Origin: a phage
Reading direction: 5' to 3' (one strand)
Length of the DNA stretch: 64,000 nt
Assembly: GCA_026683435.1 (NCBI GenBank)
Contig: GCA_026683435.1_4866.1
The translations under genes were made by a program, and so were the position numbers. Positions 1,355-64,000 of this stretch are shown piece by piece. The notes below the pieces were generated by a model, which worked only from the letters and a program-made list of their open reading frames with translations, did not search any database and was not told the origin of the DNA. Within the stretch, counting starts at the first letter, position 1. Every line of letters begins with the position of its first letter.

Positions 1355-4300
1355 ATGGCAAAAAGAGGCAAAGACGGTTTCGATGATATCGATTTAGATA
1401 GACTCGACGACTGGGATGATTTCGGTGAACCACCCCGTCCCAAAGACGAGAAAAAACGAAGCCCGATACTCAGTACCCTGAATGTTGCCAGGAAGTCGGC
1501 GTTGTCAACTATCTGGCCAGAAGGGAAACGCGACCAAGTTATCCTCAAGGGGATGCCTAAGCCGGCAGCTGATGCATACGAGGGCTATCAGTCAGCGGCA
1601 GCTGCAGCAAAGGACATTTACGCCCATACGAAAGGGGAGCTTGAGAAGACCGAGCGCACGCTGAAGATGCAAGCGCGCCAACTCGGTCCGACAATGAAGA
1701 AATACTTGCCGGATGCAGTTACTAAGCGCATCGACAAGTGGTCAAAATCTGACCAGTTAGATTACCAGAACTACGATCCGAATCAGGCATTGATGGATCG
1801 TGAACTGGGCGACGTATTCTCAGGTGTGCCAAAGGACGCCGACGAACAACGTCAGCTGCAGGACCGCATGGTAGAGGATAAGCTCCGCGACAGCATCAAA
1901 GAGATGCGCGCGGATGCAATGCACCAAACCATGATTGGGATGGCGAAAGACATTAACCTGCTAACCGGGTTAAGCCGTGGGGTATTCTTAAACATCGAGC
2001 GTAAGAAACTCGAATTGCAATACCGTACCCTGTTCGCCATTCAAGACATCGTGAAGATGAAGCAGTCGGAGTTCGATCGTAACACGCCTGCTTTAGAAGC
2101 CATCGTGAAGAACACGGCGCTGCCAGACTACGCGAAGGAAGATTTCTCAGAAGTCCGTTGGGCAAACGTTAAACGCCAGGCTGCGGAATGGATGAACCCA
2201 TTGCGTTATGCTGACGGGTTTATGGACATGATTCGCGAAAATACCAAGAAGAAAATTTCTGGTATATTCGGCGAAGGTCGTGGTTTGTTAGAGTCTGTTC
2301 TCGGCATGGGTGTTGAAGACGATTTCGGCATGAGCGACAGCTCTTCGTTGACTGCCGAACGTCGCAAAACAAATGCTCGCGATAAAGCAACTGCATGGGG
2401 TAGCGGATTCCTTGCGAAGAAACTACTCGGCCCACAAATCGAGAAACTCCAGAAATGGACTCGTGAGGAGATGGAGAAAAATCCAGAGGTCATGAAACGC
2501 CTGCAGAAGGGCGCGTTCACCTTTGGTAATCTTTCCTCTATCTCGAACTCAGCTATCGCAGGCGAAACGCAAGGACCTTTGGCGGATTTGTTCCGGGTAC
2601 TGAATGAACTCGGTATTGTCCAACCGTTAAACCGTGAGAAAGCCTTCCTTGATGAGCGTAATGGCGAAACGTTAAGTCGCTCGGCGAAGTTTGACCGTAA
2701 AGCGTATCTTAGCCTGGTTGAAGTTATTCCTGCCTGGCTGGCAGAGATTAACAAATCTGTTCGTCGTGGCTATGGCGAACATGCCGATCTGGAATACGAC
2801 ATCACCAGTCGTGGTTTCGTGGACCGCAAAGTGGTCGGTAACCGTGTACGCAAAGCGGTTGCAAACGATGAGCAGCGCCTGCGTCTCCAAAATTCCATTA
2901 ACAGCACTGTGGATTTTGTTGACCGTGGCAAAACGCTCTCGCAGAAGGATCGGCAGCATCTTGCCGACTATATCGAGTCACGTGCCTCGCAGGGCCGCGC
3001 ATTCGACGTAGAAGCGATTCTGAAAGACCCGATGCATCTTCATCGGTATATGCCAGGAAACGCCGCAGAACGCATTAAGGAAGCGTTACAGGGGCATTCT
3101 GATAGCTTGGTCGGTGGTAGCAACGAATTAAGTAACGAGCTGGCCCGCAAAATCTCCACAGTGCAGTCATCTATCACCCAACGTCAGGCAATTATCGACG
3201 AGGCGGTGAATATTTACGGTGAGCGAGCATTGCGTGATGCGGGTATCTTTAACTACGACGCGAAGAGTGACACTTTCGGCGTGGATAAAGACCTGTCCGA
3301 TCCCTATACCTTGTTTAATGACTTGGCGATGGGTAAGACACGCAGCGGGCGTGCATTGACTCGTGACCAGGAGATTCAACGTAAGCTGCAAAACGGTTCG
3401 GCGTTAGGCGACTATCTGCGCCGAATGAACCAAGGGGCAAGTGGTGGTGCCGATGACACGTCGTTGCCGCCGGCTTTACGTGGCGGTGGTAAAGGCCGCG
3501 GAATGTCGCCTCGGCAGTTAGCCGCAGTTCTCTACGGTGAAACCTCGACTAACTTTGTTGAATTGTTGAGTCAACGTAACCGCGGCGAAGAAGCACCACG
3601 GAATAACTTTGACGGCATCATCGAAGCGATTCGGGGTAATAACAACAGCGACACCCTCCAGAAAATTCTGGAACACGTTAGAAGTATGGACGAAGAAGGG
3701 GTTCTCCTGGCTTCGTTAGCAGGGGGTGCTGGTTCTGGTGACGAAGAGATGGGACCACCTCGTCCTGGTGGTGGTAGCGGTGGCGGTAAACGCCGCCGTA
3801 TTATCATCGGTGAGGATGGGCTTATTCGTCGTTGGGGCGGTGTGTTGTTCGACACTGCAGCAGGAATCGGTGGCTTTGCAAAACGTGGTGTTAAAGGTGC
3901 CTGGAATAAACTGAATCAGTTCGGTGGCTGGGCGCGCGGTAAAATCGCGGGGATGGGCGGCGGAGAAGGTCCTGGTTTCTTAACCCGGATGCGTGGCCTT
4001 ATCAGCGGTAGTGTCCGTGGGGGCTTTGAAGCGGTAAGCTCTTTCGGTAAAGGATTGCTGGGTATCCGCGACGTTTACGATGACCATGGTAATGTTGTAC
4101 TGCAAGGTGCACGTCTGGAAGCTGGAGAATACTATCAGGTCATTGATGGTAAAATGGTTCAGCTGAAAACGCTGGACGACATCAAACTGGGGAGTGATAT
4201 TGTTGACTCCGCAGGTAATCTGGTATTAGCAGCCGCTGACTTAGCCGCTGCGGGTAAACTCCGCTACTATAAAGGCGGGAAAATCCAAGCACTGACCCAA

Positions 4301-7300
4301 GGTCTGGCCAGTAAGATTGGCTTAGGCTTTAATAAGGTGGCTAAGCTACCGAAACGGTTCCTGGATTTCCTGTCACCGAAAGCAGGCAGCATCGTTGGTA
4401 AGATTAAGGACTGGCTGAACGAGATTCCGGAGGGTGAAGAAAAGACACGTCTCCAGAAAGCGTTCAACCGCGTAACGAGCTTACCGGGTAAAGTGCTCGG
4501 TTTTGCGAAACGTGGTGTCGACCGTCTGAAAGACATGATTACCGACAACCCACTGACGCGTTGGTGGAAAGGCCGTAAAGATGGTGGGGGTGGTGGTTTC
4601 AGTATCTTCTCATCAACCGGAAAGAAAACCAACCACATTCTTATCCGTATCTACAAACTGTTGAACCAACGTTTACCGGGTGATCCGGAAGACGAAAGTT
4701 GGACAGAAGAAATGGAGAAGGGTGTCGGTGGCGGTGGTAGTACGATCGGCCGTGCAGTTCGCGGGGCGTATAATCGTGCGAAATCGTCGTTGTCTGAACG
4801 TTTTGGTGGACGTTGGTCAAGAACAAAAGCGTTCTTTGGTCGTGGACGTGACCGCCTGCGTGGTTGGTTCAGTGGTTTCCGAGGCCGGGCTGGGGATATG
4901 CTCGATGGGTATCGTGGAGCACGACACGACATTGCTACACGTTACGAAGTTGAACGTCGGTTGGCTGGACGTGATGACGACGTTGCTGAGTTTTATCGCA
5001 GTCATTTGAACGCGAAAGGTGGCCTTTCTGGCCGTAAAGTCTACGGTGACGCGAAGGACGACCTTGAGACCGCGCGCGATGCAGCAGGTCGGGTTATCAA
5101 CAAAGGGAAGAACGCTGCCAAATCTGCAGGTGCAAGGTTATTCGAACGCTTGGACCGAATGATTGGCTTGCAAGAGATGTCATGGTTTAACACCATGCGC
5201 GAATCAGTATCCCGTGCAGGTGGTGACGATGGCATTATTCGTACCATGTTTGCGAAGTTCGGTAAACGTAACAAGCCACCTGAAAGTGATGAAAAACGCG
5301 ACTACCTTAACTTCTTCAAACGTTGGCGTGAGAAACGTAAGGAGAAGAAAGAGAAAGCGCAGGGCTCCAAAGGGAAATCTGGCGGTCTGTGGGATATGGT
5401 GAAAGGCTTACCTATCATCGGTCCCATCGTCAGTATCTTGGGAACTGTGGGTAATATACTCGGTTCTATCACGAAATGGGGTGTGTTAAAACCAGTAGGT
5501 CTTTTAGGTAAGGCTGCGTGGAATGTCGGTAAGTTCGCAGTAACCCGTTTGGCGGCACCCGCGGTGTCCGCTGTGGCAACTGCGGCATCTGCCGTCGTGA
5601 CAGCAGTGGGCTGGCCGGCAATTCTTATCGGTGGTGCGATCGCTGCGGCTGGTTACGCCGCGTACAGGATTGCAACGACTACCTATACCCAGTACCTGGA
5701 TAAGATGCGTTTAGCTCAGTACGGTTTCCGTGATTACGATAAGTGGTCGTCGGACGACGGGGCGAAAGCGCGTTACTTAGAAGACGCATTGCGTGAGTAT
5801 GTGTCTTACGCGGAAGATGGCCAAGCCAGTCTCCGCGGGCTAAGTGGAAAAGACGTTCAGAAGTTAGCTGAAGGGTTCGGTATTAACGTCGAGGAAAAAG
5901 GCGAGATGTTGGCCTTCCAAGCGTTTATGCTTCAGCGCTTTATTCCGATTTATCTCCGCTGGATTACGGCACTGAAGTCAATGCCGAACAGTATCCAGTT
6001 GGCTGACGTCGGCGATGCGAAGAAAGTATCGAAAGAGGACATGCTGACTCTCTTCAACAAAATGAAGATGACTAAGGATGCAAAAGCGTTCTCTTCGTTA
6101 ACTGACCCACGCAAAGTCAACCAAGGTTTCTTCTCGAAGGCTTGGGACGTCGTAACCTTTACACCGAAGGAGTTTTTGAGCGGTGAAGAGGTTATGGAAG
6201 TGCAGAATGAAGTCGAGCGTGCAATCAAGTCCAGAATGGACGATAAGAAAGCACGTAAGTACGGAATGGCACCGGCCGTGGAGGGGATTAAATCCGCTGG
6301 CGTTGATGAAGCTATCAACAAACTAGGACAGCTGGATAACGAACGTAACAAAAATCTGGCGAAGGTAGAAGGTTGGGAAGACGGAACAGAGCAGGTTCAG
6401 ATTCAGGTAGACTGGAATGCGGTGCTCGACCAGAAAGACATGAATGCGATGGAATCGGTGCGTTGGAAGACTTACGGCTTTACCACCATCGATAACGCCA
6501 CCCGCACTTTGATCACGGTATTCGAGAAGAACGTCATCAAAGACATTGACGTGAAAACCGCAAGCTACAAAGGAGATTGGAAGAAAGCAATCGCCTCGAT
6601 GGTTCCAGACGCTATCGGCACACCGAAAGAAGATCGTTTGAAACGGTGGTTCTTTGACCGTTTCTTACCGGTATTCATGACGTATTTGGTTGGGGTGAAG
6701 CGTTACCTGCCAACAGCCGATCCGCTGAACTTGAAACTGACCGGCGGCTACCTGTACGAAATCAGTCTGATGATGTCAACTGCCTACAGCTTGAAAGGTG
6801 GTATAAGACAGTCGGTGTGGGAAGTGAATATCAACCCATTAGGGGGTGAGGCTAACACGAACCCATCGTCTATCAAAGCCGAGCTGGAAACGCTGAAGCT
6901 GTTGTCAAAAGAAGCTGACCTTGCCGTGCGTAACATGATTAAAGCCATTAAAAATAATGGCAAGCGTGCACGCTGGAAGGATCGTAACAAGAACCGCAGT
7001 TCTCTGGAAGTTACCGATGAAGATGAAGAAGACTCGAACATCAGTTCGGGAGATTCTTTGTCATCTGACGGTGCTCGCGCCTCAGGCTACATTCCATCGG
7101 GTACGAGTGGTGGTGTGCCGGGTAACTTGGGTCAAGTCGTCGATGCGGTTGGTGGTGTGCGGAACTACGCTGCAATGACCACTGGTTCGTCTTCGATTAA
7201 CCTGAGTGATGTGAAAGACGGTGATTATAAGTCACTGGCTGAAAAATACCCGATAGAAATGTTGGGTAGAAAGGGTGCGTTGAACGTTCCGAATATCAAA

Positions 7301-8476
7301 GCATTGATTACCGATGCGGCGAACATGATGGGCGTGCCACCTGCAGTAGCGTTAGCAATGGCTAAAGCGGAATCCGGTTTTAACTACACCGCTAAAAACC
7401 CGTATGCTTCGGCGTCTGGGCTGTTCCAGTTCATTGACGGCACGTGGAACGGGATGATGAAGGGGTATTCGCGGAAGTTCGGTATTCCGCGTGTTAACCA
7501 AATGGACCCGTGGGCGAATGCTATATTGGGTGTACAGTTCATTCGTGACAACATCCAACAAGCACAGCGTGACCTGGGTGGTAAAGCACCACCTCCAGCC
7601 GTGGCTTATCTGTACCACTTCTTGGGTGCAGGCGGCGGTAAGAAGTTCTTGGAAGCATGGAAGCGTAATCCGAATATGGCGGCATCAAGTGCTCCTGGGA
7701 TTACATCTGCAATACTGAGAGGGAATGCCAACGTCTTCTACAGCAACGGTCGTATACGTAGCGTAGACGGGGTTATTCAGGAACTGAACCGCCGCATGGG
7801 CGCAATTTCCGCCAACGAAGTCGCTGCCGATCCGAGTAAGACGAAGGATATGGTTGCAGGCTTGTCGCCTAATTCACCAACCAACCCGGCAGCAGCAATG
7901 GGTGCACCGGCCGCTAATGATCCGAGTCTGTCGCCAGCAGATAACCTGCCGGCAGATAATGCTAATCGTCGTGATGACGCATTGACGCAGAAAGGGGCCA
8001 TGGCGGCACAAGATGCAATGGCTACCGCCGCAGGTAATGTAGGACCAGCAGCACCTACACCAACCACAGGCGGTACCGGAACATCCGATGCCTCAACAAC
8101 GGCCGAAACCGTAGCGTCGCAAGCTGCAGCAGAAGGATTGTCTGCGACGGATGTTGCTAAAGTGAAAGCAGGCGCGGAAGCGCAGGTTAACGCAGCAGCT
8201 CGTCCAGTTGCCGCTCCAACTTCTGATGCTACAGCATCGACGCCAACGCTGAATGGTGACCCGATAGATGTTCAGCAGCTCAAGGTACTGATTCAGTCTC
8301 GCGATTACTTGAAAGAGATTCGTGATATTTTGAAATCAAATCCAAGAGCGGCAAACGACACACGGGGTGGTAGTATCCAGCAAGCGGCAAATGTGGCTCC
8401 TCCGGGCTCAGCTGCACGTAGGCAGGAAATAACCCAACCGACACCGTCGTTAAACGTAAGTCGGAAAGCAAGCTAA
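1355..8476 (+). CDS. giant tape-measure-like tail/ejection protein with C-terminal lytic transglycosylase (SLT) motif
   Basis: 2373-aa ORF; Gly-rich repeats; long hydrophobic segment (GLPIIGPIVSILG…AAGYAAYRI); SLT family-1 motif AESGFNYTAKNPYASASGLFQFIDGTW at nt ~7361-7447. Confidence 0.85.
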   Translation: MAKRGKDGFDDIDLDRLDDWDDFGEPPRPKDEKKRSPILSTLNVARKSALSTIWPEGKRDQVILKGMPKPAADAYEGYQSAAAAAKDIYAHTKGELEKTERTLKMQARQLGPTMKKYLPDAVTKRIDKWSKSDQLDYQNYDPNQALMDRELGDVFSGVPKDADEQRQLQDRMVEDKLRDSIKEMRADAMHQTMIGMAKDINLLTGLSRGVFLNIERKKLELQYRTLFAIQDIVKMKQSEFDRNTPALEAIVKNTALPDYAKEDFSEVRWANVKRQAAEWMNPLRYADGFMDMIRENTKKKISGIFGEGRGLLESVLGMGVEDDFGMSDSSSLTAERRKTNARDKATAWGSGFLAKKLLGPQIEKLQKWTREEMEKNPEVMKRLQKGAFTFGNLSSISNSAIAGETQGPLADLFRVLNELGIVQPLNREKAFLDERNGETLSRSAKFDRKAYLSLVEVIPAWLAEINKSVRRGYGEHADLEYDITSRGFVDRKVVGNRVRKAVANDEQRLRLQNSINSTVDFVDRGKTLSQKDRQHLADYIESRASQGRAFDVEAILKDPMHLHRYMPGNAAERIKEALQGHSDSLVGGSNELSNELARKISTVQSSITQRQAIIDEAVNIYGERALRDAGIFNYDAKSDTFGVDKDLSDPYTLFNDLAMGKTRSGRALTRDQEIQRKLQNGSALGDYLRRMNQGASGGADDTSLPPALRGGGKGRGMSPRQLAAVLYGETSTNFVELLSQRNRGEEAPRNNFDGIIEAIRGNNNSDTLQKILEHVRSMDEEGVLLASLAGGAGSGDEEMGPPRPGGGSGGGKRRRIIIGEDGLIRRWGGVLFDTAAGIGGFAKRGVKGAWNKLNQFGGWARGKIAGMGGGEGPGFLTRMRGLISGSVRGGFEAVSSFGKGLLGIRDVYDDHGNVVLQGARLEAGEYYQVIDGKMVQLKTLDDIKLGSDIVDSAGNLVLAAADLAAAGKLRYYKGGKIQALTQGLASKIGLGFNKVAKLPKRFLDFLSPKAGSIVGKIKDWLNEIPEGEEKTRLQKAFNRVTSLPGKVLGFAKRGVDRLKDMITDNPLTRWWKGRKDGGGGGFSIFSSTGKKTNHILIRIYKLLNQRLPGDPEDESWTEEMEKGVGGGGSTIGRAVRGAYNRAKSSLSERFGGRWSRTKAFFGRGRDRLRGWFSGFRGRAGDMLDGYRGARHDIATRYEVERRLAGRDDDVAEFYRSHLNAKGGLSGRKVYGDAKDDLETARDAAGRVINKGKNAAKSAGARLFERLDRMIGLQEMSWFNTMRESVSRAGGDDGIIRTMFAKFGKRNKPPESDEKRDYLNFFKRWREKRKEKKEKAQGSKGKSGGLWDMVKGLPIIGPIVSILGTVGNILGSITKWGVLKPVGLLGKAAWNVGKFAVTRLAAPAVSAVATAASAVVTAVGWPAILIGGAIAAAGYAAYRIATTTYTQYLDKMRLAQYGFRDYDKWSSDDGAKARYLEDALREYVSYAEDGQASLRGLSGKDVQKLAEGFGINVEEKGEMLAFQAFMLQRFIPIYLRWITALKSMPNSIQLADVGDAKKVSKEDMLTLFNKMKMTKDAKAFSSLTDPRKVNQGFFSKAWDVVTFTPKEFLSGEEVMEVQNEVERAIKSRMDDKKARKYGMAPAVEGIKSAGVDEAINKLGQLDNERNKNLAKVEGWEDGTEQVQIQVDWNAVLDQKDMNAMESVRWKTYGFTTIDNATRTLITVFEKNVIKDIDVKTASYKGDWKKAIASMVPDAIGTPKEDRLKRWFFDRFLPVFMTYLVGVKRYLPTADPLNLKLTGGYLYEISLMMSTAYSLKGGIRQSVWEVNINPLGGEANTNPSSIKAELETLKLLSKEADLAVRNMIKAIKNNGKRARWKDRNKNRSSLEVTDEDEEDSNISSGDSLSSDGARASGYIPSGTSGGVPGNLGQVVDAVGGVRNYAAMTTGSSSINLSDVKDGDYKSLAEKYPIEMLGRKGALNVPNIKALITDAANMMGVPPAVALAMAKAESGFNYTAKNPYASASGLFQFIDGTWNGMMKGYSRKFGIPRVNQMDPWANAILGVQFIRDNIQQAQRDLGGKAPPPAVAYLYHFLGAGGGKKFLEAWKRNPNMAASSAPGITSAILRGNANVFYSNGRIRSVDGVIQELNRRMGAISANEVAADPSKTKDMVAGLSPNSPTNPAAAMGAPAANDPSLSPADNLPADNANRRDDALTQKGAMAAQDAMATAAGNVGPAAPTPTTGGTGTSDASTTAETVASQAAAEGLSATDVAKVKAGAEAQVNAAARPVAAPTSDATASTPTLNGDPIDVQQLKVLIQSRDYLKEIRDILKSNPRAANDTRGGSIQQAANVAPPGSAARRQEITQPTPSLNVSRKAS

Positions 8477-53824: not shown

Positions 53825-54757
53825 ATGAATAAATCTAAGTCAGGGTTGCACATCTTCTCGATAGGTATCGTCGCGGAAGATAAACCTCGTGGTGCCACTC
53901 GAGTTAAAGTCATCCCTATCGAAGTTAACTTTATTAATCCTACAGCTGTCGATGCAACAGAGACACCTGTAGAGAAGCAACACAACAGTTTAAGTGGTAC
54001 TGACAACCTTACTGTAAAGCAAGGTAATGCCATCACTGCAAAATGGATGAAGTCCAACAGCAACCGGGTTAACCCTCCGGATGTGAAAAAAGAAGACTAT
54101 GTAAGAATCTGGCGTATCGGTGAAACCGATATGTACTTCTGGGAAGATTTAAACAACAGTAACGTTAAGCGACTGGAAGATGGGGTATATGCCTGGTCTG
54201 CTGACCCAGTAAACCAGATGGCCGATGACCTCTCTAACGCCTACGTACTGAATGTCTCCCCGATGGATGGTCACGTTACTTTACGCACCAGTATGACTAA
54301 CGGTGAGAAAAATGCGTATTTGCTCCAGCTGAATACCCGTGACGGGTTTTGCCAGTTAGTGGATGACGAAGGGCGTAAGTTCTACCTCAACTCTCCAGAG
54401 GATGACTTAGGGTTTGAAAACGCCTGCCGGTCGAAGATTAATATCAATAAAGAGGACGCTTTCATTTATGCTAAACGTTCTATTAATCTCGAGACAAAGA
54501 CGATTAACGAGAAGTGCGAAACTCGCAACTCTACAGCGTCGAAAAACATGGCATGGACGACTGAAGACTGGAAGACCACATGCCCAACGAATCTATTTAC
54601 CGGTAACCTGGAAGTAGGTAAGGATTTCCTCTATAATGGCAAGGGTGAAGGTAAGGGTACATTCACAGTTACCGAATCGGTTATCGGCGGCATCACCTTT
54701 AGTCTTCACTTGCATACTGGCCATGGTCCGGGCAACGACACCAGTACACCGCACTAA
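53825..54757 (+). CDS. hypothetical protein (probable virion protein)
   Basis: 310-aa ORF with RBS gaggaggg. Confidence 0.7.
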   Translation: MNKSKSGLHIFSIGIVAEDKPRGATRVKVIPIEVNFINPTAVDATETPVEKQHNSLSGTDNLTVKQGNAITAKWMKSNSNRVNPPDVKKEDYVRIWRIGETDMYFWEDLNNSNVKRLEDGVYAWSADPVNQMADDLSNAYVLNVSPMDGHVTLRTSMTNGEKNAYLLQLNTRDGFCQLVDDEGRKFYLNSPEDDLGFENACRSKININKEDAFIYAKRSINLETKTINEKCETRNSTASKNMAWTTEDWKTTCPTNLFTGNLEVGKDFLYNGKGEGKGTFTVTESVIGGITFSLHLHTGHGPGNDTSTPH

Positions 54758-55175: not shown

Positions 55176-55206
55176 TCGGCCTGCAGGCAAAAAAAAGATA
55201 TAGGTA

Positions 55207-55229
55207 CCCTACTCCCAACGGGAGTAGGG
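55207..55229. terminator. bidirectional intrinsic terminator
   Basis: hairpin ccctactccc-aac-gggagtaggg flanked by A-run and long T-run. Confidence 0.75.
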
Positions 55230-55237
55230 TTTACCTT

Positions 55238-56500
55238 TTATTTTTTTCGTGCTTTGTAGCGATGCATTTCAACAAATGGCTTACCCCAAGCCCCGAAAGG
55301 CCCGACGATCGCCTGCGCGTCGTTTACCAAATTCTGGTTATACCAACGCGCGTTCCCCAACAAAAAGTTTTCCCGGTCGAAGAATGTGGTATTAAAGACC
55401 CACTCCCCTTCTTCCCAGGTCGGCCAGTACCCTACACATTTACCAATACGGTTAAAGATAGGACCTAGCGTCTTCTTCCCATCTGGGTCAGTCGGGTCTT
55501 TTAAATAGAACCGGCCCCAGATAGCGTTGTGGCTTATTCCGTGAATCTCTTTTTCGAGATACGGGTTGTCTATCGTAAAGATAAACGAGGATTCGTGCGT
55601 CAGCAACGCTTTTAACGTTTCTGAGTTACGAATACGTTGAACGGACGTAGGCGTACTTAAATCACCTACACCGATGGCGTCCCAATCGTAATAGCGACGG
55701 GTTTCCAATACAATCTTCGCCACGCTAAGGTTTGGCAGACTCAGCATAATCGCACGGTCGCTGAAATAGCCCTGCGGTGGCAACCAATGCAGAATACCCC
55801 CGATGACGAACCCAACGGTTTTCCCTGTAATGGAATCGGGTAAGGTCAACATTAACGAAGAATAGTAATCTCGCGTAGTATCGAGTTTGTTCATCGTTAA
55901 ACCGGATATGGGGTAAGTCTTCACTTTACCAATATTCGCCATCACTAGACAGCCGATGTCGGGTGTGTTGGCTCTCCGCACGATGTTACCAGCGCCGGTT
56001 AAGCGAACACCCACTGGGTCAGATTGGTGCGGTACCCATTGACCGTTGATGTTGTACAGTACCCCGGTACGGTATTTCTCTTTCCACTCATCGTCGCAGA
56101 CTACAACAACGTCGTGTGCATCATCAGGATTGAAGTCCTGAGTGTAGTGGTACCCAGGAGGGCACAGGTGCGTTTCTACGGGCACATCTGCATTAATAGA
56201 CTGGTAATGTGCCTCAACGAATTCGAGCTTCGGTAGGCCCTTCCCAAGCGTTGGAATCGCGATTCCTGACTTGGTGTTTAACCAATCTTGCAACGTGTCC
56301 GTACGGTTTTGTAAATCAGCCAGGTGATACTGGCTATAGAAGGTATATTCGGCACCTAGTGCTTCTAGTCCTACTTCGAAAAAGTGGTAGTTAGCACAAA
56401 GGGTATTTAAGGGCTGCGTGACATCGATGGTTCCCCAAGTTCGGGTGTCTCGAGAGAAGCCAAAAGCGCTGTCGGCCCGCACTTGATAAGCAGTAGTCAC
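55238..56500 (-). CDS. hypothetical protein
   Basis: 420-aa ORF between two plus-strand virion islands. Confidence 0.7.
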   Translation of the reverse strand: MTTAYQVRADSAFGFSRDTRTWGTIDVTQPLNTLCANYHFFEVGLEALGAEYTFYSQYHLADLQNRTDTLQDWLNTKSGIAIPTLGKGLPKLEFVEAHYQSINADVPVETHLCPPGYHYTQDFNPDDAHDVVVVCDDEWKEKYRTGVLYNINGQWVPHQSDPVGVRLTGAGNIVRRANTPDIGCLVMANIGKVKTYPISGLTMNKLDTTRDYYSSLMLTLPDSITGKTVGFVIGGILHWLPPQGYFSDRAIMLSLPNLSVAKIVLETRRYYDWDAIGVGDLSTPTSVQRIRNSETLKALLTHESSFIFTIDNPYLEKEIHGISHNAIWGRFYLKDPTDPDGKKTLGPIFNRIGKCVGYWPTWEEGEWVFNTTFFDRENFLLGNARWYNQNLVNDAQAIVGPFGAWGKPFVEMHRYKARKK

Positions 56501-56567
56501 TGGCTGTTTCCTCTAAGGATTCGGGTCATAGTATGAACTCGACGCCCTCAGAGAAAAGGAGTGTAAA

Positions 56568-59500
56568 ATGGCTGTCGTCCCTGACCCGCACTATCAAGAA
56601 CCGGGGAATATGCAGACCGGTGAAGCGGTAACGCCGATCGGTACTAAGTACCGGATGCTGTTCCCCGCACACGCCCCCTTTTATACCACATCCCTGGTGG
56701 TCAAGAGTGGCGGCAAGAAATTAACATTAGGTGATGATTACGTCATCACCCATGCGTACGTTACGGGCATGGCCCGCACTGGTCATGTTTGTCACGGCGG
56801 CGTGTGGATTACCAACCCGAAATACCAGAGTGGCTTTACACTCGATTACCATGCAATTGGTATCGGCGAAGCCACTGCAGAAATGATCGCCGCAGAACGA
56901 GAAGCGAATAAAGATCGGTATCCCGTAGACTGCCAATGGGATAACGTCATTGGGGATTTATATTTCCCACCGGTCGATATTAAGTTCGACTGGGAAAACT
57001 GGCGTGGCGAATCCGAGTTGATGGAAGCCATTGTTGCGGTTGGTGCTAAGCTCGGTGAAGCGATCAGCCGCGTTGACCCGATTGCTCGTAACACGTTAGA
57101 CCTTCAATATCGCGCCGGCGTCACGCTTATCACATCCGAGCAGTATGCGACGTACGACGGTACTGGCGGCTACACGTATAACGCGTCACGTCGTCGTTAT
57201 TCGTTATCTTACCAGAATACGACATTCGATGCGTATTCGTTAGCGGTAAAATACCGTTTACCGAGCATTCCACCGGAAACAACGTTGAATCCAGGCGAGT
57301 TGATCGATTGGATGCTCTGTTACGCAAACGGTGGGGCAAGTATCCTGCGTCTTCAGTTGAAGCAACGCGCGATTTATCTTACCTTAACGACAGCGATTGG
57401 TTCCGGTTCGTCTAATTACAGCTATACGTTGACGACTGGCCTGACCGATACCGAGTTGGCGGGTGAGGTTGAGTTTAGCGTGGTCAGACGCGAAGGTAAC
57501 GGCATTTACGACATCACCGTTAAAACAAGCAAGCAAACCGTTAACTACAGCTTTAACGTTGACAACCCACCGAGCGAATTTGCGCCAGGGTATCAGAAAA
57601 CTAATGTCGCAAAATGGTTGAAGTTTAAATCGGGCGTCAACCTAAACTGGTGGGCAGGTGAGAACGATTACGTCCAGATTCGTTCATTACCAGGCGCACC
57701 GGCACCTGACGTTAACAATGACGTGTACCAGCTGCTGGTAAAATATCACCAGATTGTCGATAAACTGTACCGTGATGCACCGGCACACACACACGTGCCG
57801 CGCAAGGATAACCCGCATCGCGATTCGTGGGGCGCAATCCGTGCTTTGGAGAATAACGGTATTGCTTCGGACGCGACACTGGTATACGGAAAAACGCAAC
57901 CGCAGCTGACAGATTACGTTAACAATCTGTTGCCGAAACTGTCAACGCTGGCGAATAAGCTTTTACGCTTACCGACGGCTGCACAGTCTATCAACGGCAC
58001 GTTCGGCATGAAGCCTGGCCTGACTTCAATAACGTCAGCAGTGGGTACCGATGAGTCTGAAGGCGTGGGTGCACAATTCACGGTTGACCCGAGGGTTATC
58101 CGTTTTATTGGACGCGATTCGCAAACCGTTAACGCCGGGAACAATCCGATTACATGGCAAGGTGGGGCTAACCAGCTCATCCTTTATCCGGATTCCCGTG
58201 GATTGGAGTTCAACGGTAAGAAACTGTTGGACCCTACTACGGTCGGGCCGTACCTGCCGGGTAACGAATCAGGTGGTGATGGACTGTTTTACGGAGCATC
58301 CACAGCTACTGTAACCATTAACGGTAACGGTATTCAGTCGGTTCCGTTCATTTGTACTTTTGTTCCACCGGAGTCCGACGACCTTGGCCTGATGGCTGTC
58401 CGTTTGTTGGCTACTGAATTCGGTGATCGTGAGGACTTGGCCGCAACGCCGGCACTCATCAAGAAATTGGATCAGCAGTTTACGGGCAAGTTGGTTGCCG
58501 TTAAATCGTACATCAACGACATGCCACTGACGAGTTCTATTTACATCGATAAAACTAACTTCGGCTTATCGAACGTACAGAACATCCCAGATGTACAATT
58601 GCCGATTTCCCCGCTCCAACAAGCTGAGCTGGACAAGTATGCAGTCGTCGGTCACAAACACACTTCTGCCGCGTTCGGGATTAAGCGTGCAACAACGACG
58701 GAGTTCGGTTTAGTACAGTTCGGCACCGCGGTTGACGATGCCACGCTGGCATTAGACGGCGGTGAGGTCATCCGACAGGCGGACGCCATCACAGAGATAG
58801 TGAAGGTTGCGAAGACAGTCGACTCTGGTGCTTCAATCAACATTATTCGTTACGGTTTACCCGGCACGGATATCATTGAAAACGGCATCACTTACACCGA
58901 CTGGATGGTTACTATTAAAGCGAACGATTATTTCGTTGGTCGCGAGTACAAAGTACCTCTCTCCACATTTAACTTGGCGGAGCTATTCCCAGCGACGCAC
59001 GAAGATGCCGAGTTTGGCGTGTATGTTGACGCGGCGGGCGATGATGGCAAGTACATTATCTACGAAAATCCAAATACGGCAGAAACTGAGACGATGACTA
59101 AAATAGGTTCCATCGTCACCAGTGAAACCGGTGTGGTGTTTGTAGAAATCCGCAACGTGACGCGTTTAGGTGAGTTTCGTGAATTAGGCGAGCATATCGA
59201 GGATGATAACGCCCATATTCGTCGGGGCATGACGCAAGCTGAATTCGGATTTACTTACGGTACCGGCGGGCCTGTGTGGTCCACGGGTGCACCGGGTACA
59301 AAACGTATAGATGCCGATTGGCGTTACGCGCAGGCTAGCAGCTATACGCCTATGTTGAAAGCGGACTACGATCCGGCTGCTGATAAATGGACGTTTAAAA
59401 CAACCGGTTTAACTGTAGCCGATTATCGTTTTGTCCACAACACATTCCCAATGTTCCAGAATAACGGCATTACCGCGACGTGGACACCTTTAACCGCAAC

Positions 59501-60281
59501 AGCGGACAGTGTGCTAGAAACGGTAATTGGGTGTTGCCATCACTCGGCCACGTTCATGCACCGTATTTCTGTACTCGTCGTACGCACCGCAGGGCGTATT
59601 ACCACTCCAGGCGGCGTGAGCACGTATGCGGGAATCGCGGTTAACTACGGACGTGCTGCTCAGGTTGTTATTGGCTTGAACGGTGTTACTGGTTCCGGCC
59701 ATGACTGGACGGCACTTAATCCATCGGTGCGTTTCAGCCACACGCGAACAGCGGACGGTATTTCGTTCGAGGGAACGATTAACATCGATTCCAAAACGAT
59801 TAACTTTGAGCTGACGCTAACCGCGACAACAAAGACGCTGAAATACACCTTGCAGTCGACCGGAGAGTCGTGGACTGAGGATTTGTCTACCCGTCTCCGT
59901 CCTGACTATATCGACTTGACGAAACTGATTACCGATCCGAGTACGCCGATTTATCACGGCGTGGGTGGTTTGTTTAGTTCCGACACCGAAGTGCGTTTGA
60001 CTTACGCTAACCTGAACACGATGCCGACAAAGAATCGTTATTACGCCACGTTCCTTGACTATGCGATTAACTATTCCGGCTTAAACCGCGCAAGATTCTT
60101 TACTGGCGTGGTGGATGCAGGTTCAACGATTAATGAGATGAACAGCGCGATGTGCAACTATTCATACAGTTCGTTCCGACCAGTGGATACAGGTAAAATT
60201 CCACTGGTGGCACACCCATCCAAGATGATGACGTTCAATCCGAAAAACACGTCAGCTCGAACACTTATTATTCGTGATTAA
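56568..60281 (+). CDS. large tail-fibre-like protein
   Basis: 1237-aa ORF with RBS aaggag; directly followed by a second giant fibre-like ORF. Confidence 0.75.
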   Translation: MAVVPDPHYQEPGNMQTGEAVTPIGTKYRMLFPAHAPFYTTSLVVKSGGKKLTLGDDYVITHAYVTGMARTGHVCHGGVWITNPKYQSGFTLDYHAIGIGEATAEMIAAEREANKDRYPVDCQWDNVIGDLYFPPVDIKFDWENWRGESELMEAIVAVGAKLGEAISRVDPIARNTLDLQYRAGVTLITSEQYATYDGTGGYTYNASRRRYSLSYQNTTFDAYSLAVKYRLPSIPPETTLNPGELIDWMLCYANGGASILRLQLKQRAIYLTLTTAIGSGSSNYSYTLTTGLTDTELAGEVEFSVVRREGNGIYDITVKTSKQTVNYSFNVDNPPSEFAPGYQKTNVAKWLKFKSGVNLNWWAGENDYVQIRSLPGAPAPDVNNDVYQLLVKYHQIVDKLYRDAPAHTHVPRKDNPHRDSWGAIRALENNGIASDATLVYGKTQPQLTDYVNNLLPKLSTLANKLLRLPTAAQSINGTFGMKPGLTSITSAVGTDESEGVGAQFTVDPRVIRFIGRDSQTVNAGNNPITWQGGANQLILYPDSRGLEFNGKKLLDPTTVGPYLPGNESGGDGLFYGASTATVTINGNGIQSVPFICTFVPPESDDLGLMAVRLLATEFGDREDLAATPALIKKLDQQFTGKLVAVKSYINDMPLTSSIYIDKTNFGLSNVQNIPDVQLPISPLQQAELDKYAVVGHKHTSAAFGIKRATTTEFGLVQFGTAVDDATLALDGGEVIRQADAITEIVKVAKTVDSGASINIIRYGLPGTDIIENGITYTDWMVTIKANDYFVGREYKVPLSTFNLAELFPATHEDAEFGVYVDAAGDDGKYIIYENPNTAETETMTKIGSIVTSETGVVFVEIRNVTRLGEFRELGEHIEDDNAHIRRGMTQAEFGFTYGTGGPVWSTGAPGTKRIDADWRYAQASSYTPMLKADYDPAADKWTFKTTGLTVADYRFVHNTFPMFQNNGITATWTPLTATADSVLETVIGCCHHSATFMHRISVLVVRTAGRITTPGGVSTYAGIAVNYGRAAQVVIGLNGVTGSGHDWTALNPSVRFSHTRTADGISFEGTINIDSKTINFELTLTATTKTLKYTLQSTGESWTEDLSTRLRPDYIDLTKLITDPSTPIYHGVGGLFSSDTEVRLTYANLNTMPTKNRYYATFLDYAINYSGLNRARFFTGVVDAGSTINEMNSAMCNYSYSSFRPVDTGKIPLVAHPSKMMTFNPKNTSARTLIIRD

Positions 60282-60293
60282 GGAGATTTTTGA

Positions 60294-63200
60294 ATGAAAA
60301 CGTATCCTTACGATCCTCGGGGTGTAAATCCTGAGTGTCACTTCATCGAGGAACGTATCATCGACTCCGACAATCCTAACGATCGGGTGGTGATGCTAGA
60401 TCATCGCCCGTTTTTCGAAGGATTGGTGGTAAGGCTCGCCGGCTCGTCCATACCGCTTACCCGCGGGACGGACTATGAGCTGGAGTATGCTTTAACACCG
60501 TTGGACGACTCGGTGACGACCCCGGTGTTTTGCGGGGTGCATCTTATTAACCCTAAACTGCGTGGTGCGGTGGTCTTTGAAGGCCAGATGCTCGGGGGTA
60601 CGTTTTACAGTGGTTTGATTGAGATGTTGGATGAGCTAATTAAGGCTCTCAACAATCCAACGGCTGCAGATTGGCTGCTTTTAGGTAATCGACCCTCCCT
60701 GTACCCAGCCACCCCTGCAGCGGTAGCTTGGTCAGACATGCTGAATAAAAAGTATGTTGCCTCTGCAGTGCATGATGTGGAGTTAGATGCCGGGGCGGCC
60801 AACGAGCAGATTCGTGAAAAGCTTACTGAGCTGAAAGATGCGGTTTTGGGCTTAGGAACTGAAATCGCCACATTTAACTACCCCGGACACATTGCGTCGA
60901 CTAACCCCCATGGGACTACCGCGGCGCAGGCCGGTGCGCATCCTGTCAACCTGAAAACGCCAGATACTTTCCTGGCGTATGGAAAGACGTTGCGTCAATT
61001 AACCAGCGAGGTCCGTGCACTGGGCCTGCAACAATCGGATATCGACAAGTACATTTCTAAATGGGTATCGAAAGAATCCAAAGGGGTGTTTAACGCGACG
61101 ATATCCGGTACTCGTGCCCTGTTCCGTTCTCCTGCTGGTGAATCCGAAATTGTGTTCTCTGCTGAGGCATTCACTCTTAAATCTAATGGCTCTGTTGTGT
61201 TGGCGTGTGGGTATGCCGACACTACTGGAACCGTCCGGTTTATGGAGTGGAAAGCAGGCATCAATACATTACGTATTGAGTCGACTGGCAGTGCCTTGGG
61301 GATGGATAAGCTGACGCTTAATGGTACGACGTTACTGACCACAACTGCTCTCATGGGCTATCAACAAGACCCTGGTACCGGCGGTGGTACCGTTGACCCG
61401 GATGACAACAAACTGTACATTAGCGGGGTGAACGGCATCACTTTCACGGGTAAAGGGTCAAAAGCCGATCCCGTCACCGGGAAGGTCACAGCCAAACCCG
61501 CGACGACCTCTGAACCTGGCGTTGTGACGCTGACTGATAAGCCGAGCGATGTAGTCAAAGGGCAAGCAGCCACCCCGTCGGCGCTTTTGCCGTATGAGGG
61601 CGACCTGTCTTCGTACGTCAGGAAGACAACGCTGCTGAATAACCAGCCGATGAACACTGGTAGTCGAACGCTGACGAAAAAGGATTTAGGTTTAGACTTG
61701 GCTGATAACACAGCTGACGTCGATAAACCACTTTCTGATGCGTTGGCAGAAGCAGTTACCGGTCTTAGTGATAAAGGTCACCATCACAACTTCGCCGATT
61801 TACAGATCCCAACGGCTTCTCAAACAGTTCCCGGTATCGCTCGATATTCTACCAACCTAAACGGCTTGTCGGGTAATCGCGGCGTTACCCCGAACGTTCT
61901 GAACGATTTGTCAAAACGTTTAGACGTAGTTGCAGCTGCGCTAGCAAACGCGAAAGAGGATTCCGTGACCGATTTTGCCGCTGTGCGTGGTAAGACTTGG
62001 ACTGTGGGATCTACACGTACCACCCTCGCCGTAACGGATTTGAATTATTTCTATCTGTTAAATGGTGCACGTAAAGAGGGGACGGTATCTGGTTCGATAG
62101 ACCTGCAAACCACCCCGATGTTCCAGTGGTTCTCTCCAGATAACCGTATGGAAAGAACGTGGCAGAACGCGGTAATTAATATCGGTGACGGTATTGATTT
62201 TAGTGGGTTTGAGGTTGCCGTCCCGGAAACGAACTACGGTGCGCAGATTGGGTTAACGGCAACCGGCATGGGTGACTTATCGGTTGTTAACCTTTTAGCA
62301 AAAACGTGGGTTCGTTGCGATACAGGTAAACTACGTATTTGGGTTCGTGGCGGTGGTGCTGTTTCTGTTTATCTGGACGGTGTAATTATCGGTGCGGGTA
62401 TTACAGAAGCGGGGTATCTGGAGGCGACTGTCAAAGAGGGGTGGAAGCAACATTGCCTGGCGTTTCGTGCGGAATGTAACAATAGCGCGAAAGCAGCTGC
62501 TATACGCTTCACCATTTACGATGGTGATTACCCGGTTGCGGTGTCGGACAAAAACACCAAGGTCGCCCGTTTGCAGGAGTTTGTTAAGACCGCGAACGGT
62601 TTACGACATTATCTTTACGTGAACATGATAACCGACGCATTGTATTCACGTGCGGAACCCATTGTGGACACTGAAGGTATTAACCTGGAGCGTGGGTACA
62701 TTGGTTACATTGATGTACCCGAGACGGGATTGGTTGCAGGTACGACTTACGAGTTTGAAACGACGTTTGATTTTGGCATGGCGTCCGAACTTAAACGACA
62801 CTTCGAAACACGTCTGGCGCACGGAGTGAGTAATGCCGACTGGTCGTTGACGGATAACCCAAAAATGTTACCGCTAAACAAAGTCGATCCGTTGCCTAAA
62901 CAGTGGCTTTATGCGTACCCTAATAGTCCAGTTTCTGGTAACCACTATATTCGATTAGACCGAGGGTTATTCGATTATAAATTTGATAGTACCATTTCAA
63001 GCCTAGTGTTTGTTGGAGCGGTTGTCTCCACAGAAAGCGCATCACCGTACTGCTGGTTTACACCAAGCAACCCGAAAGAAAAAGGGATGGCGACGTTTGA
63101 AGGTTCTGTGGTGGTCGATGTTGATTTGTCGGAAGCACAAACAGTTCGCGTTCGCGATATCACATTAAACTTCATGGCCCCGTCTGCAGATGATAAAAGC

Positions 63201-64000
63201 AAGACTAGGGTACTGAGATGGAGTGGCAATCGTCCAGAATTGAATTGTGGCTTCATCACGTCTCCTTATAACCAAGCAACTGGAGGCATCATCTCGACCA
63301 CGCAGGGCAGTGTTACAAATAAGGTGCTTGAAAATCCGAGGGTAATTAAAAACCTGACGAGCCAATCTACCGAGTGTTTAGATTTTCTTTCGGTTCATAC
63401 CGATAGTGAGCCTGCGCCGCTTGGAGATCGTTGGCTTGTACGTTATCGATACATTGTTGATACGCAGGTACTGCGCATCTCAATGGTTTCTAAGTTGATA
63501 GCCAATCCGCTGGTGCAGGTTTACGAAATGGAATACGACATTCCGTTTGATGCGATCGATTACTTTAAAGGTGGGGCGCTAGCCATCCACGTTTCCGGTA
63601 TTGAAACTGGAGACAACGTGACTATTAACCACGGTTTGATGCAGCCGATCATCTCAGATGTGGATATAAATCGTTTCCATTATTTACGTTCACTGTTTGA
63701 GTCGTATATTGAAAGGACACCAGATAGACAGTCTTCCGGCCACGAGGAGATGACAGTAACAACGGTACCTTTTGCGTCATTTGGAGATAACGTTGATCAC
63801 CCGGTTACGGAATACATCACGATGTCTGCTGCAAGTGAAGGTTATCCGGAACTTGCACCGAACGGTAAACTCCCCGCGCCGTTTTATAAAGGGCTGCAGA
63901 AACGTGGTGCTCCGCTACTTGAGTCGGCTCCTGCCGACTATACGGCTAACGGTGGTGAATGGAAGAACGGCTTTATGCGGGCCTATCGCCCAACTCAAAC
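60294..64000 (+). CDS. partial tail-fibre-like protein (C-terminus beyond right edge)
   Basis: Manual translation from ATG 60294 (RBS aggag) is open to the window end; absent from ORF track; contains KKDLGLDLADNTADVDKPLSDA and GHHHNFADL, motifs typical of phage tail fibres. Confidence 0.75.
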   Translation, partial: MKTYPYDPRGVNPECHFIEERIIDSDNPNDRVVMLDHRPFFEGLVVRLAGSSIPLTRGTDYELEYALTPLDDSVTTPVFCGVHLINPKLRGAVVFEGQMLGGTFYSGLIEMLDELIKALNNPTAADWLLLGNRPSLYPATPAAVAWSDMLNKKYVASAVHDVELDAGAANEQIREKLTELKDAVLGLGTEIATFNYPGHIASTNPHGTTAAQAGAHPVNLKTPDTFLAYGKTLRQLTSEVRALGLQQSDIDKYISKWVSKESKGVFNATISGTRALFRSPAGESEIVFSAEAFTLKSNGSVVLACGYADTTGTVRFMEWKAGINTLRIESTGSALGMDKLTLNGTTLLTTTALMGYQQDPGTGGGTVDPDDNKLYISGVNGITFTGKGSKADPVTGKVTAKPATTSEPGVVTLTDKPSDVVKGQAATPSALLPYEGDLSSYVRKTTLLNNQPMNTGSRTLTKKDLGLDLADNTADVDKPLSDALAEAVTGLSDKGHHHNFADLQIPTASQTVPGIARYSTNLNGLSGNRGVTPNVLNDLSKRLDVVAAALANAKEDSVTDFAAVRGKTWTVGSTRTTLAVTDLNYFYLLNGARKEGTVSGSIDLQTTPMFQWFSPDNRMERTWQNAVINIGDGIDFSGFEVAVPETNYGAQIGLTATGMGDLSVVNLLAKTWVRCDTGKLRIWVRGGGAVSVYLDGVIIGAGITEAGYLEATVKEGWKQHCLAFRAECNNSAKAAAIRFTIYDGDYPVAVSDKNTKVARLQEFVKTANGLRHYLYVNMITDALYSRAEPIVDTEGINLERGYIGYIDVPETGLVAGTTYEFETTFDFGMASELKRHFETRLAHGVSNADWSLTDNPKMLPLNKVDPLPKQWLYAYPNSPVSGNHYIRLDRGLFDYKFDSTISSLVFVGAVVSTESASPYCWFTPSNPKEKGMATFEGSVVVDVDLSEAQTVRVRDITLNFMAPSADDKSKTRVLRWSGNRPELNCGFITSPYNQATGGIISTTQGSVTNKVLENPRVIKNLTSQSTECLDFLSVHTDSEPAPLGDRWLVRYRYIVDTQVLRISMVSKLIANPLVQVYEMEYDIPFDAIDYFKGGALAIHVSGIETGDNVTINHGLMQPIISDVDINRFHYLRSLFESYIERTPDRQSSGHEEMTVTTVPFASFGDNVDHPVTEYITMSAASEGYPELAPNGKLPAPFYKGLQKRGAPLLESAPADYTANGGEWKNGFMRAYRPTQ

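Follow-up and report, generated by a model that had tools for sequence, protein, structure and literature searches.

Two giant adjacent genes in a Seoulvirus tail-tip module probably encode phiKZ-type baseplate fibre proteins

Gene structure and genomic context of the locus

The DNA analysed here, hereafter the window, is a stretch of 64,000 nucleotides (nt) of phage origin (contig GCA_026683435.1_4866.1 of GenBank assembly GCA_026683435.1) which, to judge by sequence similarity, comes from an SPN3US-like jumbo myovirus (Seoulvirus, Chimalliviridae). Its right-hand end is occupied by two giant open reading frames (ORFs) on the plus strand, ORF1 and ORF2, that correspond as orthologues to SPN3US gp170 and gp169 and probably encode phiKZ-type baseplate fibre proteins, placed in the fibre end of a tail-tip module. 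The gene structure is as a preliminary description of the sequence had given it, with a frame of 1237 amino acids (aa), a gap of 12 nt and a second frame open to the end of the window (1235 stop-free codons from 60294). Random sequence would yield 1237 codons without a stop with a probability of about 1.6e-26. The second frame is indeed absent from the program-made ORF list that accompanied the sequence, a list that omits frames running off the window end. An AAGGAG ribosome-binding site lies upstream of ORF1, while the ATG of ORF2 stands 12 nt past the TAA of ORF1 and is preceded by a GGAG that overlaps this TAA, an arrangement that suggests translational coupling. The rightward extension proposed as a check was provided by a Logan contig (run ERR6411844), of which 17,433 nt are identical to the window; it completes ORF2 at 1376 aa and continues with a gene of 1727 aa and then one of 400 aa. 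Features of the locus are collected in Table 1.

Positions 55200-64000 match 23 full-length Seoulvirus genomes by megablast, with identities of 98.4% to JN03, 97% to the coliphages EC001 and Lh1B, and 93.9% to SPN3US. Compared with the SPN3US gene map, the order of genes in the window follows gp173-gp167, and the lengths of gp170 and gp169 (1237 and 1376 aa), their neighbours and their order all equal those of ORF1 and ORF2. ORF1 is 98% identical to gp170. The proteins of the window are also on deposit from an E. coli assembly, in which a 239-kb contig encodes a protein 100% identical to ORF1. ORF2 shares about 85% identity with gp169 and 99% with its counterpart in phage JN03, SPN3US differing from the window only in the allele of an ORF2 cassette at aa ~850-1150 (see below). 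Near-identical Seoulvirus copies number in the hundreds on ~240-kb contigs of assemblies labelled Salmonella enterica or E. coli, an abundance suggesting that bacterial isolates often carry Seoulvirus phages or are sequenced together with them.

ORF1 and ORF2 are catalogued genes of a known genus, and their candidate function is published, not new. In SPN3US, gp168, gp169 and gp170 were found in purified virions by mass spectrometry (MS) at roughly equal abundances and were grouped as 'paralog family C'; a tailless mutant is without all three, and they were reported to be similar to phiKZ gp131 and labelled 'baseplate/tail fiber candidate' (Ali et al. 2017, PMC5694885). Another study of SPN3US found that gp171 is both essential and associated with the tail and that gp168 is a tail protein (Thomas et al. 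2016, PMC5105663). The pool of SPN3US mutants also included an amber allele of gene 169. Flagella are the reported receptor of SPN3US (PMC11428620).

Table 1. Coordinates of features at the locus (E, expectation value; AF2, AlphaFold2; pLDDT, predicted local distance difference test score)
Feature	Amino acids	Nucleotides	Strand	Basis or remark
ORF1, SPN3US gp170 orthologue	1237 aa	56568..60281	+	ATG start; 98% identical to gp170; PHROG 7557 over full length
ORF1 gp131-like N-terminal domain (putative fibre anchor)	1-160	56568..57047	+	BLASTP, tblastn, hhalign
ORF1 inserted beta-sandwich domain (predicted)	161-390	57048..57737	+	Conservation 9-17%; AF2 pLDDT about 75-84 at aa ~197-377
ORF1 H-x-H...NPH motif	407-417	57786..57818	+	Closes N-terminal module; common to phiKZ gp131 family
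ORF1 degenerate repeat copy (..NVQNIPDVQLPIS..GHKH..ATTTEFG..)	642-744	58491..58799	+	Module profile E 1e-33; PHROG 35419 'tail fiber protein' E 5e-4
ORF1 motif GHKH	695-698	58650-58661	+	Sequence check
ORF1 beta domain and H-x6-H helix	767-883	58866..59216	+	Common to gp168; AF2 pLDDT 70-89; H876, H883 invariant
ORF1 variable beta-rich C-terminal domain, candidate receptor-binding part	917-1237	59316..60281	+	Conservation 18-34%; AF2 pLDDT 62-89 at aa 917-1147
ORF2, SPN3US gp169 orthologue	First 1235 of 1376 in window	60294..64000	+	ATG start; PHROG 8078
ORF2 gp131-like N-domain, helices, H199..NPH206 motif	1-220	60294..60953	+	hhalign; AF2
ORF2 tail-fibre repeat module (DNTADVDKPLS ... GHHH ... 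ASQTVPG)	441-546	61614..61931	+	Module profile E 1e-39
ORF2 motif KKDLGLDLADNTADVDKPLSDA	462-483	61677-61742	+	Sequence check
ORF2 motif GHHHNFADL	495-503	61776-61802	+	Sequence check
ORF2 beta-sandwich region, lectin-like or like a carbohydrate-binding module (predicted)	560-830	61971..62783	+	Confident AF2 prediction
ORF2 hypervariable two-allele cassette, candidate specificity determinant	~850-1150	62841..63743	+	Protein and DNA comparison
gp173-like protein, homologue of phiKZ gp164		53825..54757	+	BLASTP 32% identity, E 6e-30; RefSeq label 'baseplate assembly protein'
YdgH/BhsA-like (DUF1471) protein, SPN3US gp172 equivalent	69 aa	54966..55175	+	PF07338 43.5 bits, cut-off 27
Terminator-like hairpin		55206..55230	.	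11-bp stem, 7 GC pairs; consensus match only; between convergent DUF1471 and gp171-like genes
gp171-like protein, homologue of phiKZ gp130	420 aa	55238..56500	-	GTG start

The N-terminal module and its place at the baseplate

Both proteins begin with a domain of the phiKZ gp131 type. In pairwise BLASTP, ORF1 aa 6-158 aligns with aa 12-170 of phiKZ gp131 (E 5e-9) and ORF2 aa 4-214 aligns with the same protein (E 2e-7), while tblastn from ORF1 reached the gp131 genes of 54 phiKZ-like phages, annotated 'tail tip/tail protein', via the N-domain alone. A profile of the Seoulvirus-group N-terminus compared by hhalign with a profile of phiKZ gp131, gp133, gp134 and gp135 scored 99.8% (E 1e-29) over 214 columns. 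Ahead of the H...NPH motif, helices are predicted by AF2 at ORF2 aa 103-120 and 166-203. Within that motif H409, P416 and H417 are invariant among ORF1 orthologues, as are H199 and H206 among ORF2 orthologues; H..NPH is likewise invariant in the phiKZ paralogues, where hhalign aligns it with the motif of ORF1 and ORF2.

The two genes belong to a set of four paralogues, gp170, gp169, gp168 and gp167, the last two (1727 and 400 aa) lying just beyond the window, and each of the four opens with the gp131-type beta-domain followed by helices and then by H...NPH. The N-terminus of gp167 matches phiKZ gp135 (E 1e-12) and gp169 (E 2e-7) by BLASTP, which makes gp167 a fourth member of a family for which the literature lists three. 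Homology among the paralogues extends well past the N-domain: gp169 aa 39-574 aligns with gp168 aa 31-558 (E 2e-22), ORF1 has the same modules as gp169 and gp168 but split by an insert, and the central regions of the paralogues are homologous (97%, hhalign). A second block is shared by ORF1 aa 765-883 and gp168 aa 1297-1417 (BLASTP E 1e-10). The C-terminal domains of ORF1 and ORF2 are unrelated to each other by hhalign.

The gene on the minus strand beside ORF1 had been described as wedged between the terminator of the DUF1471 gene and the fibre genes. This gene and the DUF1471 gene are both real, with a terminator-like hairpin between them, but the minus-strand gene is no intruder; it encodes the conserved gp130-type docking protein of the module. 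The gp171-like product matches phiKZ gp130 over its full length (BLASTP E 3e-16) and PDB entry 9xqd_L (PHIKZ130; phmmer E 9.6e-11), and the divergent order is that of phiKZ, where gp130 and gp131-135 occupy opposite strands. Features of the gp131-type family present at this locus are the N-domain, a helical segment followed by H...NPH, and a cluster of paralogues beside a divergent gp130 homologue. The module of spike, gp130-like protein and four fibre paralogues is kept in Seoulvirus, Erskinevirus, Machinavirus, Wellingtonvirus, Derbicusvirus and one Vibrio phage.

In phiKZ, gp130 is an outer-periphery baseplate protein beneath which the fibres attach (PMC13250141). Cryo-electron microscopy (cryo-EM) places six gp131-like N-domains and a six-helix bundle beneath gp130 at each of 12 fibre sites, and the 2026 atlas of this phage shows 12 peripheral fibres with the gp131 propeller modelled at the distal end (PMC13250141). 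The phiKZ proteins gp131, gp133, gp134 and gp135 (Sycheva 2012; PMC13250141) resemble those of the window in having a homologous N-module of ~220 aa and in being encoded by several clustered paralogues; however, they are two to three times shorter and are without the DNTxDxxKPxS module, whereas ORF1 and ORF2 carry a tail-fibre repeat and predicted lectin-like C-terminal domains. By homology with phiKZ, the N-terminal modules of several Seoulvirus chains would come together as the base of a fibre, with their helices in a bundle, and this base would sit beneath the gp130-type protein on the outer edge of the baseplate.

The central tail-fibre repeat

Downstream of the anchor module the two proteins share a repeat unit that is widespread among phage tail fibres. 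The motifs quoted in the preliminary description were all located where they had been claimed (KKDLGLDLADNTADVDKPLSDA and GHHHNFADL in ORF2, GHKH in ORF1), and an in-register alignment shows that DNTADVDKPLS...GHHH of ORF2 and NVQNIPDVQLPIS...GHKH of ORF1 are homologous, with N, K, D, P, S, H-x-H and G invariant. A profile of this module, ~108 aa long, matched 17,146 representative proteins at a cut-off of E<=1e-3, many of them carrying it in tandem. All ten of ten sampled matches fit PHROGs named tail fibre, minor tail, tail collar fibre or host-range protein, and three of the ten match the Pfam family PTR ('Phage tail repeat like'), whose cut-off is exceeded by two. The module was also found by tblastn in actinophage minor tail proteins and in PhiPA3 gp164. 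PTR proteins (PF12789; PHROGs 35419, 13892, 24919, 523 and others, comprising tail fibre, minor tail and tail collar fibre proteins) have in common with the window proteins a unit of ~50 aa, ..NGKPL..(L/V)TK.D.GL.NVDNTxDxxKPxS.. and then HxH; the best matches of this type carry up to 20 tandem copies each, whereas ORF1 and ORF2 contain one copy apiece, that of ORF1 being degenerate.

The likeness of the histidine box and the DNTxDxDKPxS motif to long tail fibres thus stands insofar as it denotes a widespread tail-fibre and minor-tail repeat; the kinship with T4-type fibres that had been read into it does not. That ORF1 and ORF2 might be homologues of the T4 long tail fibre (gp34/gp37-like), forming iron-binding HxH needles with a dedicated chaperone, is suggested by the HxH motifs of T4 gp37 and lambda Stf, by sizes similar to gp34 and gp37 and by the arrangement of giant fibre genes in a row. 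Yet the module profile is insignificant in T4 gp34-37 and lambda Stf (best E 0.044, hmmsearch), on which ground the kinship was rejected, and neither tblastn nor the PHROGs gave a T4-like match. There is no detectable homology, the anchor module is another one, each window protein has one HxH against eight or so in gp37, and the genes that follow are paralogues, with no Tfa or gp38-like chaperone gene among them. The resemblance is generic only, and we regard this explanation as hardly credible.

In the phiKZ-type fibre reading that we prefer, the chains would run on from the base into a conserved shaft containing one copy of the repeat (..NGKPL..DNTxDxxKPxS..HxH..ATxxxxG..). Orthologue alignments show three invariant histidine pairs in ORF1 (H409/H417, H696/H698 and H876/H883) and three in ORF2 (H199/H206, H496/H498 and H836/H843). 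The histidine pairs of the shaft could bind metal on a three-fold axis; metal binding on the symmetry axis occurs in other fibres. The last pair of each protein lies in a short helix with an invariant H-x6-H that follows a beta domain (ORF1 aa 873-883, ORF2 aa 833-843, gp168 aa ~1407-1417). Downstream of the fibre repeat there may thus be a further shared module, for which the hhalign signal is weak (14.5%).

Variable domains, the ORF2 cassette and the neighbouring genes

Conservation across orthologues is strongly uneven. In ORF1, aa 1-160 and 395-920 are conserved, aa 161-390 are hypervariable and the residues from aa 921 are variable; in ORF2, conservation holds to about aa 880 and gives way to variation beyond. 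Receptor-binding tail proteins are usually conserved at the N-terminus and variable at the C-terminus. The hypervariable insert of ORF1, which sits between the anchor domain and the next helix, is kept within Seoulvirus but differs greatly between genera, and it is missing from Machina-type, pSal-SNUABM-04-type and Vibrio-phage orthologues.

AF2 models were built from 27-30 diverse orthologues per protein, with alignments taken from database matches. Confident parts comprise aa 10-100 (pLDDT 71-85), 560-830 and 870-1130 of ORF2, and the insert (aa ~197-377), aa 767-867 and aa 917-1147 of ORF1. The best Foldseek matches of the whole ORF1 model are ConA-like lectins (E ~1e-4), the responsible domain not being indicated by Foldseek. 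On these models, the C-terminal halves are predicted to be beta-sandwiches resembling lectins or carbohydrate-binding modules, variable between genera. Comparable folds are found in legume lectins and in the lectin-like or carbohydrate-binding modules of tail proteins such as the distal tail protein of phage Chi (8vjh_B), with 7-15% identity to the window proteins and a fold that is generic; neither sugar-binding residues nor ligands were identified. The chains may end in large lectin-like beta-sandwich domains, differing between paralogues and between genera, that would contact the host surface. That the proteins are instead tailspike-like enzymes, depolymerases or glycosidases degrading a surface polysaccharide, we consider very improbable.

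The sharpest variation within the genus falls in ORF2. Between a window-type genome and SPN3US, differences number 0 of 420 residues in gp171, 24 of 1237 in gp170 and 55 of 1727 in gp168, against 211 of 1376 in gp169. Nearly all of these 211 lie within aa ~850-1150, at up to 46 per 50 aa, and the flanks are at least 98% identical. The window allele of this cassette (99% DNA identity) is carried by EC001, Lh1B, JN03 and SaP7, and the remaining 19 full-coverage records carry another allele, 71% identical to that of the window at the DNA level. The phages with the window allele include both coliphages and the polyvalent SaP7, and the cassette was considered as a switch between E. coli and Salmonella; however, by cluster membership each of the two alleles occurs under the Salmonella label as well as under the E. 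coli label of assemblies, and the idea is not supported. From the comparison of sequences the cassette looks like an exchanged specificity module, and not like a simple species switch.

A more elaborate arrangement, possible though doubtful, is that gp170, gp169, gp168 and gp167 form a hetero-oligomeric, branched fibre base like the gp131x3/133/134/135 assembly of phiKZ, each chain bearing a different lectin-like arm, with the ORF2 cassette as an exchangeable module tuning flagellar or glycan recognition across Salmonella and E. coli. The near-equal MS abundances of gp168-170 and the in-register homology of the first ~560 aa are compatible with a hetero-oligomer without showing it.

Several observations weigh against the assignment of ORF1 and ORF2 to baseplate fibres. 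The literature speaks of gp169 and gp170 as 'baseplate or fibers', having placed the family in the virion tail through MS and the tailless mutant (PMC5694885). No Pfam family reaches threshold for either whole protein or for six excised segments; Phage_fiber_2 (PF03406) attains 12.6 bits with the whole protein and 18.1 with an excised segment (ORF1 aa 619-634) at a cut-off of 22, and the PTR model (PF12789) itself is unmatched by the repeat copies of ORF1 and ORF2. One repeat copy and a single HxH per protein contrast with the repeat-rich sequences of typical fibres. Searches of PDB sequences with single sequences and orthologue profiles found no solved structure and returned only noise (glucokinase regulatory protein, E ~0.1), and the seven-bladed propeller of gp131 (4gbf), although present in the library, was unmatched by ORF1, ORF2 and their profiles. 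The AF2 models are poor overall, with mean pLDDT of 58 for ORF1 (aa 38-1237) and 61 for ORF2 (aa 1-1200), and the fold matches are to generic beta-sandwiches, with template modelling scores of 0.3-0.5 and large root-mean-square deviations. The helical and shaft regions are of low confidence, as is expected of chains that fold only as oligomers, and give no reading of a trimeric or hexameric architecture.

Some of this evidence would suit a different structure, in which the two proteins are peripheral baseplate blocks (wedge or 'star-lobe'), beta-sandwiches decorating the rim, and the true fibre is made by another protein, for instance gp168 alone. Ali et al. left the choice between baseplate and fibres open (PMC5694885), a reannotation based on HHpred calls some Seoulvirus virion proteins 'baseplate wedge' (PMC6614189), the AF2 models consist mostly of globular beta domains with no obvious long shaft, and only gp168 had an amber mutation that led to its being termed 'expected-essential' (PMC5105663). 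Nevertheless, cryo-EM puts the homologous phiKZ N-module at the fibre-attachment site (PMC13250141), the central module is a tail-fibre repeat, and variable C-termini with a swapped cassette are typical of parts that contact the host, so that we judge such rim blocks unlikely. The tail-fibre-like character originally proposed for the two genes is supported by the gp131-type anchor, by orthology with gp170 and gp169, by the widespread fibre repeat and by the PHROG matches, fibre-related profile matches having been obtained for both proteins, each of which matches PHROG tail and tail-fibre families. Baseplate fibres of the phiKZ type therefore remain the probable identity of ORF1 and ORF2.

Phages of the genus Seoulvirus are under development for use against Salmonella and E. 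coli, and although the practical value of the present result is modest, work on host-range engineering or the reading of resistance could use the variable parts, that is, ORF2 aa ~850-1150, ORF1 aa 161-390 and the variable C-termini. The annotation of the module is also tidied, with gp171 as the gp130-type docking protein, gp173 as the gp164-type central spike and gp167 as the fourth member of the fibre family.

As to the remaining neighbours, the phiKZ homologue of the gp173-like protein, gp164, is the central spike (PMC13250141). Spike, docking and fibre genes form one module in the window, whereas about 30 kb separate the gp164 gene of phiKZ from its gp130-135 cluster. Scans of the region for tRNA genes and sigma-70 promoters were uninformative. 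The DUF1471 gene is kept at its position in the Seoulvirus, Erskinevirus, Machinavirus, Wellingtonvirus and Derbicusvirus relatives examined, and none is annotated there in the Vibrio phage; elsewhere, the annotation given to this family is that of a bacterial stress-resistance protein (BhsA). Its 7-kDa SPN3US equivalent, gp172, was detected in virions by MS (PMC5694885). Elsewhere in the window, an ORF of 2373 aa at 1355-8476 is 99% identical to SPN3US gp239, which RefSeq calls 'tail fiber protein' and Ali et al. 2017 the tail tape measure; the RefSeq label on this protein is probably misleading.

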